Assembly: GCA_964016885.1 (NCBI GenBank)
Contig: OZ024761.1
Location: forward strand, 18,228,001-18,292,000
Source: Eledone cirrhosa
Lineage: Eukaryota
Direction: 5' to 3'
Length of the DNA stretch: 64,000 nt
This document shows, piece by piece, positions 1 through 37,834 of this stretch. Below the pieces are notes generated by a model, which was not told where the DNA came from, did not search any database, and saw only the letters and a list, made by a program, of their open reading frames with translations. Position numbers and translations under genes: made by a program. Position 1 is the first letter of the stretch, and every line of letters starts with the position of its first letter.

Positions 1-159
1 GAGATAATGAGAAGTGTTGGCTTGGTGGAGATTGATACAACTTTGGGTGATGTTACGAGGAGAGGCAAGGCTATGGAGAGTGTCTTAGTGGAAGAGATGA
101 CATCAGAGCAGTAACCTCCAAAGAGATGAAATTAGTGACTGAGATGCTATCATTGCATA

Positions 160-480
160 GTTAAGAATATATATAACAAACATATACTATAAATTTAACA
201 AGTCAAACTACAGTTATACTCTAACACGGAAGACAAATAAAACTTTACCTCTCTCATGCACGTCGTATCCAGTGTGTTGTTATAAGAAAACCGGTGAAAC
301 ACTAAATATGCCACCAGTGTAGCGATTTTATACTCTCTCTCTGCTTCATCGTACCACCCAGTAACATGAAACTGTGTTCAAATCCCTGGGAGGTAGAATT
401 TCGTCGCTTTAAAATAAACACACTGGGGTCAGTTTGAATATTGATTTCATGTGAAAAATATATACATATTATGATTGTAC
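160..480 (+). pseudogene. Orphan ORF family A, copy A1 (degenerate; present in every unit)
   Basis: Translates LRIYITNIYYKFNKSNYSYTLTRKTNK... then NR*NTKYATSVAIL after a frameshift. Aligns with A2 and A3; shared DNA motif ACCGGTG(A/T)AACACTAA. Confidence 0.45.
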
Positions 481-784
481 TCCGAACTATCAATATTGAA
501 ACAATTTTAATGTGCCAATAAAATTTATATATATCTATACAGCAACAGTGTTTTCGATCTTTCTTACTTTTTTTATTCACACTCTACAGTCACTTTAACT
601 CTGTAATAAAACCCAACACGAGACGAACGTTAACTGCAGTTACCCACGAAATTAACGCACACACAAATGAATATATATATATACTACTAAAATGTATGTA
701 AAATTAAAAAATAAATACTTAAATTCAATGTATGTATAATTACACATACAATACGTTTTGTTGTAAAACCCTAAATAATAATTT

Positions 785-1110
785 AAGAAATGATGTTAAT
801 CTCTTTGTACAGAGATAAACATTAATTTATGTGTGTGCGTATATACACCATTTAAGACAGCGAAAAAACCAGTACCTCCTTCGAAGAATGCCAAATAGTT
901 TATGCCTCAGGTATACCGGTGTAACACTAATTAAGTTACCGGTGTAGATATTTCAGTTGAACCGTGCTTCAACAAACTACCCGGTAATTTGAAATCGAGT
1001 TTAGAGTGAGGGGGTGTAAAACAGAATTCTGTTTGGAAAATAGTAAATTCTAAACCTGCTAGAAACAGCAGCCAAATGTCGCACTTTGGGTGCGACTCGT
1101 CTTACCTCTT
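785..1110 (+). pseudogene. Orphan ORF family A, copy A2 (degenerate)
   Basis: PFKTAKKPVPPSKNAK*FMPQVYRCNTN*VTGVDISVEPCFN..FEIEFRVRG..KPARNSSQMSHF with stops and frameshifts. DNA is clearly homologous to the reverse complement of 2520-2680. Confidence 0.5.
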
Positions 1111-1402
1111 CTAATATATATATGTGTGTGTGTGTGTGTGTAGATTCACAGGTCGCGTCGGAGAGAAACCACAATAAATACAATGTACTCAATAGATTGG
1201 CACAGTATATATGTGTGTGTGTGTACATATAAATATGTGTGTGTGTATGTATATATATATATATATATATATATGTATAAATGTATATATACATATAAAT
1301 ACTTATATATATACATAAACATATGTATACATACACACATATATAGATATATATGTGTGTATATATATATATCTGTGTGTTTATTTCTCTATATATATAT
1401 AT

Positions 1403-1450
1403 AATTATTACTTAGGTTCTAAGGAATATTCCGCGAATGTAGGGGTTTAC
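1403..1450 (-). mobile_element. 5' terminal piece of a Tc1/mariner (pogo/Tigger-like) MITE; present in units 1, 2 and 6, deleted in units 3-5
   Basis: Reverse complement AGTAAACCCCTACATTCGCGGAATATTCCTTAGAACCTAAGTAATAATT matches the left end of the element at 63645-63992. Confidence 0.7.
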
Positions 1451-1517
1451 TCTCTCTCTCTCTATATATATATATATATGTGTGTGTGTGTGTGTGTGTG
1501 TGTGTGTATACATATAT

Positions 1518-1896
1518 ATTACTTTCACTGTTCTTTCTAGCATAAAAAAGAAAAACCGGAAGGGTAGAAAATTGAAAAACTTCTTCTTTTTCCCTCCTCT
1601 AACTTTTCAAACAAAAGATAATTTTATGTAAACAAAAACGAAATTTTTGCCAAGAAAGATAACTCTTCTCTGACTTAAATCCAAAATTGGGATACAAAAT
1701 AAATTCCGCAATTTTTTGTATCCCAATTTTGGATTTAAGTCAGAGAAGAGTTATCTTTCTTGGCAAAAATTTCGTTTTTGTTTACATAAAATTATCTTTT
1801 GTTTGAAAAGTTAGAGGAGGGAAAAAGAAGAAGTTTTTCAATTTTCTCCACTTCCGGCTTTTTCTAGTGTATGCTAGAAATAGCAGTCAAAACAAT
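1518..1896. repeat. Long palindrome (hairpin), unit 1
   Basis: Perfect ~134 bp inverted arms at 1566-1699 and 1714-1847 around a short asymmetric spacer (TAAATTCCGCAATT), imperfect outer arms, flanked by (TG)n/(TA)n. Confidence 0.97.
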
Positions 1897-1964
1897 ATAT
1901 ATATATATATATATATATATATATATATATATATATATATGCCTTTCTTGTGACAATATATATT

Positions 1965-35751: not shown

Positions 35752-35944
35752 CGGGCGGTGGATTGGCAGTATCGGTAGAGGGTCGGACGCCATGCTTTCC
35801 AGCATAGTCACGTCCCTTTACGATCTGAGTTCAAATCCCGCCGAGGTTGACTTTGCCTTTCATCCTTACGGGGGTCGATAAAATAAAGTACCAGTAATGT
35901 TCTGGTTAATTGCTGGCCTTGTGCCTAAAGTAGAAACAATTATT
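35752..35944 (+). mobile_element. tRNA-derived SINE family 1 with target-site duplication
   Basis: A/B boxes (TGGCAGTATCGG, GAGTTCAAATCC), core GCCTTTCATCCTTACGGGGGTCGATAAAATAAAGTACCAG, and a flanking duplication of about ATTATTTCTTTAAACGT; inserted into the family B copy. Confidence 0.88.
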
Positions 35945-36254
35945 TCTTTAAACGTTAATTTTGTACTTGACTTATAATACCGGTTTCTTCTCTTTAGATT
36001 GAATAAAGAACATTTTACGTCTACAATTATATTCAACATAACTCATGTTAGTCTTCACAGTCACGGACCTGTTTTTACTATATCTGCTTATGGGTGGGGA
36101 GGGGCAGTACAACCCCAAAATAAGTCCATTTAAGGATTCACTCGGTAGAAAGTGTCAAAAGAAGGAACACTGGTATAAGGTTTTTAGGTCTAAGCAGCCT
36201 AACAAATAGATTTCAAAGTTATCGGCAACTAAACAAAACTTTAAAATAAGCAAT

Positions 36255-36572
36255 AATGGTTTCTTATATAGGCACAAGGCGAGCAATTTGGTAGGGGGGG
36301 GGGGACGATTAAATCGACCACAGTGCGTGACTGGTACTTTATTTTATCCAGCACGTAAGGATGAAAGACAAAGTTAACCTCGGCGGGATTTGAGCTTAAA
36401 TCATAAAGGGTCATAACTCTATGCTGCAAAGCATGGCGTCCGACCCTCTACCAATACTGACAAAAGCAATAAATTGTTTCTATTTTTGGCATAAGGCCAG
36501 TAATTATCTCAGTGCATTACTGGTACCTTATTTTATCGACCCCGTAAGGATGAAAGGTAATGTTAACCTCAA
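36255..36572 (-). mobile_element. SINE family 1, one near-full and one partial copy
   Basis: Two reverse-complement cores CTGGTAC.TT.ATTTTATC...GGATGAAAG. Confidence 0.8.
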
Positions 36573-36717
36573 TAATGAAGTCAATTCTGACCAAGATTAG
36601 ACAACTCTCACATCCATATTAGCCTCTGTTAATTCAGGAGACCACTTAATTTTATTTATTAATAATTACAAAACAAGGCCACTTATTGTCACTAGAACAG
36701 TGGAAACATTCATTTAA

Positions 36718-37258
36718 CAGGAATTGCTACAGCGATGGTGCGAAAAGATCAGGGTTTCTAAACTAAATCAGAGAATGTTTCTTTAACAAACACAAGCATA
36801 TAAAAAGTAGAAGGGATATTGACAGTGCATAGAACTAGGAAAAAACTTCTATCAAATAGATTTTCTAGTGGCTTGGAACTTAGTAGCTCCAGTTATAATT
36901 GTGTTACACATGTTCAGTAAGTATATTTTTATTGATATCAAACTTAAAGGTATACTAAAGCCTCATACGTTTTTATATATATGTTTCAGCTTAAGTTTTA
37001 AAAAAACGTACGAATTATTACAAGCAGTGTAAACACGAATTAAAGATAATAAATGTACCAAGAAGGCGACCTCAAGATTTTCACTTCATTTAAGATGAAA
37101 TCAAACTTATGCATATGTCGACGACATCATTATGGCTGGAAAGAACATTCACTGAACATCACGAATCTACTAGAGGCGGAAGACAAGAGAAACGACCATC
37201 CTACCTGAAATATTATGTTATGATAAAACGTTTGAATCTCAATAAAGTGGAGAAAACT
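36718..37258 (+). pseudogene. Degenerate Gypsy-type RT core, inverted copy
   Basis: QELLQRWCEK..; KVEGILTVHRTRK..MFSKYIFIDIK; IINVP; YAYVDDIIMAGKN (YVDD 37114-37125) / FTEHHE; KRLNLNKVEK. Confidence 0.68.
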
Positions 37259-37339
37259 GTTGTATGTTGTTGTTATATCATTATACTTTAGCTTGATTTA
37301 TTTCTATCTCTTCCCATAAGAAATAATACAACTTAATAG

Positions 37340-37468
37340 TTGTTTCTACTTTTGGCACAAGGCCAGCAATTATCCCAGTGCATTACTGGTACTTTATTTT
37401 ATCGACCCCGTAAGGATGAAAGGCAAAGTTAACCTCGGCGGGATTTGAACTCAGATCGCAAAGAGACG
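37340..37468 (-). mobile_element. SINE family 1, 5'-truncated
   Basis: Reverse-complement core and B box. Confidence 0.82.
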
Positions 37469-37834
37469 TAAAACCCTATCAGTGTATGGAAATGTGCGTA
37501 TGAGAGTATATAATAATAATAATATATATGTTGACAACAAGTTGTATAAACGAAGCAAGTCAAGCTGCAGTTATACACTAAGAAAGACGGCTTAAAACGT
37601 TACCTTTTACAAACGTATGTCAAAGATATTGTTTCGGAAAAACCGGTGTAACACTAATTACGTTACCGGTGCAACTATTTTAGTTTACCCTTCTTTAAAC
37701 TCACTCCAGTCATTTCAAATCGTATTCAGAGTACCGGGAATAAGAAAAATAAACCGTTTGCCGAAGTTTTTAAATCTACTAAAAATAGCAGTCATATCTC
37801 TCATTTTCGCTCCAAGGTGTAATAAGCCGTGACA

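Follow-up and report, generated by a model that had tools for sequence, protein, structure and literature searches.

The window analyzed here is a 64,000-nucleotide stretch of the Eledone cirrhosa genome (contig OZ024761.1, positions 18,228,001 to 18,292,000). Self-comparison identified five full tandem units on the plus strand (1..31160, with starts at 1, 6287, 12568, 18731, and 24903), each 6.16-6.29 kb long and 94.8-99.7% identical to one another. They are followed by a partial sixth unit (31161..32702, plus strand) that includes modules A1 and A2, a microsatellite, and the end of a MITE, and stops at an inversion junction. Beyond this junction, an older partial unit lies on the minus strand (about 33100..37833) and contains, under our module labels, A2, A1, T, the tRNA-like stretch, one B, protease-RT, and A3. 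It matches the forward units in reverse with 83-97% identity per module, and is interrupted by SINE insertions near 35753-35943, 36306-36570, and 37334-37474; these SINEs are also present elsewhere in the window. The tandem amplification of a ~6.2-kb unit and the presence of one inverted copy, both proposed in a preliminary description of this locus, are thus confirmed. The array extends leftward past the window start. Contigs assembled from four sequencing runs, all belonging to a single study, were present in each of the 30 bins, which is uninformative for copy number and expression.

In the first unit, module A1 is located at 170..470 and A2 at 820..1120, both on the plus strand, and A3 (2480..2800, minus strand) is an inverted paralogue of A2. 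The three A modules are paralogous to one another, and so are B1 and B2, as had been noted previously. The same description regarded the unit as filled with densely packed ORF remnants on both strands, a view that the analysis did not support. For 33 representative copies of A (from a total of 203), 12 copies of the RT module, and 11 copies of B, the synonymous fraction was 0.20-0.27 and third-position excess was absent, a result common to 18 of 18 frames. The gaps of the RT alignment, sorted by the remainder of their length modulo three, were distributed 16/19/19, so that the 16 multiples of three among 54 gaps are no enrichment. The A, B, and RT modules show coding constraint in no frame, and A1, A2, and A3 are all non-coding. 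The Pfam cut-off was reached by none of the 30 frames of the unit and the inverted copy (two weak chance rows), while a search with 24 frames of module A and of a 4.5-kb unit described below produced one weak row. One A3 frame is open for ~77 codons in two diverged copies; an Atlas search restricted to one A3 frame gave no usable match, and a word-based protein search with the A alignment gave nothing, which is weak evidence. Module A was also considered as a pre-miRNA and rejected, its core being a 23-bp direct duplication that is often deleted.

Two pieces of one dispersed ~340-bp MITE, its 5' end (1404..1452, minus strand) and its 3' part (1945..2172, plus strand), flank a large hairpin; this MITE has 3217 candidates genome-wide. 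At 5790..5875 on the plus strand, a stretch resembling an A-box and B-box is followed by a T run. This stretch had been described as a tRNA-like unit; it is not a tRNA gene, as neither ARAGORN (relaxed setting included) nor Rfam called a tRNA and no cloverleaf with an anticodon was found. The Rfam search of positions 1-8300 returned 69 rows, all below gathering scores and originating from microsatellites and the hairpin.

The rest of the recognizable unit is derived from a Ty3/Gypsy element. A profile of eight broken frames had a single match among 1.84 billion proteins (E 2e-4), to a protein with retroviral-type protease and RVT_1 domains. The relatives of this protein within the E. cirrhosa genome are Ty3/Gypsy gag-pol ORFs, many of which, including the nearest intact ones, have two CCHC knuckles. 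In tblastn, intact relatives matched the unit in the order gag-protease-RT on one strand, with a best E of 8e-12 against 0.14 for a control with reversed sequences; the gag knuckle itself was weak but colinear (E 0.003-0.013). In a frameshift-tolerant scan of four units, the protease scored 32-56 and the gag knuckle 18-24, the latter modestly above the reversed-control maxima of 15.6-17.2 and at the expected place in all four units. Three stray rows also scored 19-23, so that the gag call leans on position as much as on score.

On the minus strand of the first unit, this fragment comprises two short RT scraps (3081..3187) representing the start of the RT region and the catalytic YxDD motif, a decayed aspartic protease (3270..3552) detected by profile search, tblastn, and the frameshift-tolerant scan, a decayed gag zinc-knuckle region (3666..3805) within the former B1, and a duplicate zinc-knuckle region (4568..4671) within the former B2. 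The gag knuckle, protease, and RT motif of the inverted copy are found on the plus strand at 36099..37152 (best tblastn E 8e-12). The RT core between the two scraps is missing, namely the stretch matching about residues 197-321 of protein P0001, and RVT_1 had no match. The RT module therefore consists mainly of a Ty3/Gypsy protease, with two RT scraps, and both it and family B come from one ordinary Ty3/Gypsy gag-protease-RT stretch. The preliminary description was right that RT is present, as attested by the catalytic-motif scrap, and that RNase H and integrase are unrecognizable, since a full gag-pol profile found nothing above control for either. It was mistaken in listing gag and protease among the unrecognizable parts, which are in fact the best-supported parts of the unit, and in describing B1 and B2 as diverging from RT, as the ancestral sense strand of B is the RT strand. 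Because the gag knuckle of B1 and B2 lies on the minus strand, the divergent orphan family was an antisense reading.

As regards LTRs, no direct repeat was seen to flank the Gypsy fragment inside a unit, and the flanks of the Gypsy relatives compared had no DNA-level match to the unit. Gypsy and LINE ORFs of an initial set taken from the genome did not match the unit, and word-based protein searches with the RT frame and one B frame gave nothing, again weak evidence. A Penelope-like RT, raised by the YxDD motif, was dropped after the protease and gag-pol matches to Ty3/Gypsy. We presume the fragment to be Mag-like, a label based on the two-knuckle gag and not on a tree. The Mag lineage is reported to account for more than one third of mollusc Gypsy elements (PMC6238403). 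Like such elements, the unit carries the gag knuckle, the protease, and RT colinearly on a single strand, but it differs from them in that RNase H, integrase, and LTR are not detected, the RT core is deleted, and all frames are broken.

The 6.2-kb family is known from far more units than the window holds. The RT module occupies at least 114 distinct places (150 of 442 candidates were scored); among the matches scored, 111 are at ten sites on contig C22 and three on C24, and the window's own array contributes 15. A 28-base word from module A has 233 matches, and of the first 100 listed all but one are on C22. Further older arrays were also found. The units of the older arrays are 6.9-7.1 kb long, about 85% identical to those of the window, and have the modules in the same order, with some local duplications. 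With kilobase monomers arranged in head-to-tail arrays and homogenized within arrays, the family qualifies as a macrosatellite. No dispersed full-length copies with common ends were found; the copies sit in arrays whose ends differ. Many array ends are away from the hairpin arm, often beside fragile microsatellites, and several array ends or inversions fall in or beside the arm. We found no description of an octopus macrosatellite or a cephalopod piRNA cluster of this kind in the literature listings searched, which included few subscription papers.

The hairpin is a 400-bp palindrome (1508..1906) composed of two inverted copies of a ~180-bp arm and short flanks, and it recurs at 7794, 14035, 20204, and 26404. 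The strong fold computed for its 400 nt (-265.9 kcal/mol, z -39.7), with a perfect stem of ~140 pairs, upholds the large hairpin proposed earlier. Older arrays on C22 at 6.6, 7.1, 8.0, 10.4, 13.1, and 27 Mb have a single arm only, which implies that the palindrome is derived. A further hairpin at the inversion junction (32703..33098) is in flipped orientation and joins a left-type flank to a right-type arm; from this mixture, the inversion may be attributed to a crossover between opposite arms. A comparison of 27 distinct two-arm hairpins revealed 10 distinct changes that affect both arms simultaneously and 57 that affect a single arm, and the stem has 19 G-U pairs on the plus strand versus 12 A-C (p 0.28). 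The pattern of arm changes is consistent with arm-to-arm conversion at the DNA level and bears no sign of one-strand RNA selection. Helitron ends as boundaries of the arm were rejected, as homology in old arrays continues beyond both ends. The hairpin was likewise rejected as a MITE in its own right, for which many dispersed copies would be required, the arm being found almost solely in arrays.

The arm is not confined to the 6.2-kb family. A word from its outer end has 602 matches at no more than one mismatch, and the matches listed are located in tandem arrays. Many of them are part of a second, unrelated macrosatellite with a 4.5-kb unit, found on C18, C20, C22, and C26, the junction word of which has 202 matches. 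Apart from a faint resemblance between their tRNA-like heads, the arm is all that the 6.2-kb and 4.5-kb units have in common. The outer ~60 bases of the arm are duplicated in inverted orientation in the 4.5-kb family, a separate fold-back at the same inner end of the arm. The arm of this family is 97% identical to that of the old arrays at 27 Mb on C22. For an inner 18-mer of the arm, C1-C17 contain one of 417 exact matches (in a list ordered by contig), although C1-C4 alone comprise 1.6 Gb, and the first 100 among the matches listed are otherwise on C18, C20, and C22. The near absence of this word from C1-C17 argues that the arm is not a dispersed transposon.

The arm also changes slowly. The window's arm is 92.5-95.2% identical to six older copies, compared with 82-87% for the other windows of the unit pooled (Fisher p 0.02 to 6e-5, for copies that are related and so not independent). 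In six of six young-versus-old comparisons, its rate of divergence is roughly half that of the other windows; from a second reference, its identity is higher than that of the rest in five of five comparisons, significantly in two. On the other hand, an old copy of the 4.5-kb unit on C24 has an arm that is less well conserved than the sequence around it (77.6% versus 84.0%). The two families are side by side on C22 and C24, and the sharing of the arm could be explained by chance transfer and conversion between neighbouring families.

Considering these data together, the unit is probably a non-coding macrosatellite monomer assembled from a decayed Ty3/Gypsy fragment, MITE pieces, microsatellites, and further repeats, and likely multiplied and spread through DNA recombination, not through a reverse transcriptase of its own. 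The observations behind this reading are that parts of the unit originate from a Gypsy element and a MITE, that coding constraint is lacking, that one chromosome carries many arrays, that old units have a single arm, and that the junction hairpin is flipped. The unit breaks down largely into known transposable element fragments, the outcome that had been named as counting against a novel element; module A and the hairpin arm are the parts that do not, and neither these two nor the GC-rich stretch and the 3' halves of B could be matched to a known element. In the proposed course of events, a fold-back in the ancestor of the younger arrays would have made two arms out of one, and arm-to-arm conversion would keep the two arms alike. 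The inversion at 32.7-33.1 kb would have resulted when a forward and an inverted unit crossed over at opposite arms, and unequal exchange would keep each array homogeneous. Plain unequal crossover does not explain the conservation of the arm above the neutral drift of the unit, nor its sharing with an unrelated macrosatellite.

There are two alternatives. According to the first, which develops the dsRNA or small-RNA idea of the preliminary description, the arrays are transcribed source loci of small RNAs, in which the arm is promoter-like, plus-strand RNA has the opposite sense to the Gypsy piece, in the manner of one-strand piRNA clusters, and the younger arrays yield hairpin dsRNA from the palindrome. 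The slow divergence of the arm is in line with this model, as are its putative ETS-like and forkhead-like words, and the perfect stem, a long fold-back of the kind that a hairpin-RNA (endo-siRNA) locus would have. A truncated LINE on contig C7 has a 268-bp piece of a sister A2 copy, in plus sense, fused to its 5' end. This is the layout expected of a template switch onto RNA and hints that plus-strand RNA may be made from the unit; it is one case, however, and could reflect DNA capture. Small RNAs from a macrosatellite have a precedent in human DXZ4 (PMC4199704). Against the model, the stem has no significant strand bias of G-U over A-C pairs, the nearest Gypsy relatives examined lack a DNA match to the unit, so that the target looks extinct, and the exact words of the arm are nearly confined to arrays, leaving no target gene evident. 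We regard this alternative as unlikely.

In the second alternative, the ~180-bp arm is a cis-acting signal for amplification or mobilization that, as an inverted repeat, would promote breakage, circles, or re-replication and thereby seed arrays of any carrier unit. It would account for the arm being the sole sequence common to two unrelated macrosatellite families, for its independent conversion into an inverted repeat at the same inner end in both, for the scattering of both over small chromosomes in numerous short arrays of either orientation, for the near absence of exact arm matches from C1-C17, and for the array ends and inversions in or beside the arm. Short inverted repeats are reported to seed palindromes and amplification in other systems, including Tetrahymena rDNA, yeast, and mammalian amplicons (PMC3734650). 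However, only two families are involved, they adjoin each other on C22 and C24 where the arm may have passed by chance conversion, and single-arm units also make arrays of 7-20 copies. In addition, the arm is the less conserved part of the old 4.5-kb copy, and many array ends are elsewhere, often next to fragile microsatellites. This signal is improbable in our estimation. The original proposal, that the unit descends from an RT-bearing element not described so far, or from an endogenous virus, in which A and B were accessory gene families, could appeal to the module order kept across arrays about 85% alike, to module A without a known match, and to the A3 frame open in two diverged copies, but it is very hard to credit for a unit in which B and RT belong to the same Gypsy fragment, on the same strand, and the hairpin flanks are MITE. 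Moreover, RNase H, integrase, and the core of RT are lacking, none of the frames shows coding constraint, and the copies are tandem and not dispersed.

The macrosatellite interpretation has parallels in known systems. Satellites derived from LTR retrotransposons include maize CRM1TR/CRM4TR, potato St3 repeats, and the gag-containing satellite of E3900 type in rye (PMC9659126), in which, as here, the array monomer contains a decayed Ty3/Gypsy fragment including gag. Unlike these, the present unit combines several unrelated pieces into a 6-7 kb mosaic that has inversions inside it and includes a 400-bp palindrome, and it is found in many short arrays over one chromosome. The human macrosatellite DXZ4 has a similar kilobase tandem monomer; in contrast to this single array, the 6.2-kb family forms many arrays, known here from DNA alone. 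As in systems of palindrome formation, a short inverted repeat is at the pivot of a multi-kilobase inversion, but the arms of the large inversion in the window differ in age, and a crossover between existing copies therefore fits better than one fresh fold-back. The mollusc piRNA clusters presented in PMC12506671 have no bearing on the 6.2-kb locus.

The 6.2-kb array provides a well-dated example of a macrosatellite born of transposon debris, and a caution, in that a decayed gag read antisense mimicked an orphan gene family. The shared, slowly changing arm is the part most worth following. It is rather unlikely, though conceivable, that a ~180-bp sequence caught by two unrelated macrosatellites of transposon scraps, and inverted independently in each, is a cis element (promoter or amplification signal) that turns tandem units into a spreading archipelago of small-RNA-producing arrays in a cephalopod-type genome. 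Should transcription or the seeding of arrays indeed be driven by the arm, it would offer a 180-bp handle on the spread of large tandem repeats within chromosomes, and also on the rise of small-RNA loci in molluscs.

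Besides the 6-kb macrosatellite family of the window, the genome assembly (G000) contains a second one with a unit of 4.5 kb, whose junction word gave 202 matches in a genome word search. Loci of this family lie on contigs C18 (29.02 Mb), C20 (27.28 and 28.40 Mb) and C22 (10.76 Mb) (extracted pieces L144 and L173-L181), and arrays are also present on C26. The 4.5-kb unit, for which a Pfam search returned no match, includes a short inverted-repeat form of the arm, the ~180-bp sequence of the 6-kb family's hairpin, flanked by several A-box/B-box-like heads. Old copies of the 4.5-kb family (about 70-84% identity) adjoin the 6-kb-family copies on C24 (13.963 Mb; L148:3050-3480), and one of them contains an old arm, present singly, whose flanks are those of the 6-kb family.

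A 268-bp piece of the non-coding module A2 on C7 (91.89 Mb; L117:5298-5560), with its nearest relative in the C22:13.1 Mb copy (92.6%), forms a fusion with a truncated, probably R4/Dong-like LINE, at the LINE's 5' end. This LINE has a C-terminal endonuclease and is inserted in TAA repeats.

Within the inverted copy of the window, an 81-bp tandem repeat (2.6 copies, 34934-35146) has a shorter form in the forward units. A complete MITE of ~340 bp, presumably pogo-like judging from its ends, occupies window positions 63646-63990 and is bounded by TA repeats; its family has more than 3000 candidates in the genome. A run of 200 N bases (53739-53938) lies amid long microsatellites, and the 38-64 kb region otherwise consists, as far as examined, of SINEs and simple repeats.

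A solitary arm fragment on C11 (31.52 Mb; L197:5365-5568) keeps its upstream flank and lacks its outer end, and no target-site duplication was seen around it. At C22:27.156 Mb (L016:7334-8692), a lone arm marks a further inversion junction, which is flanked on each side by A3 and the RT module. This junction is the mirror product of the window's inversion junction.
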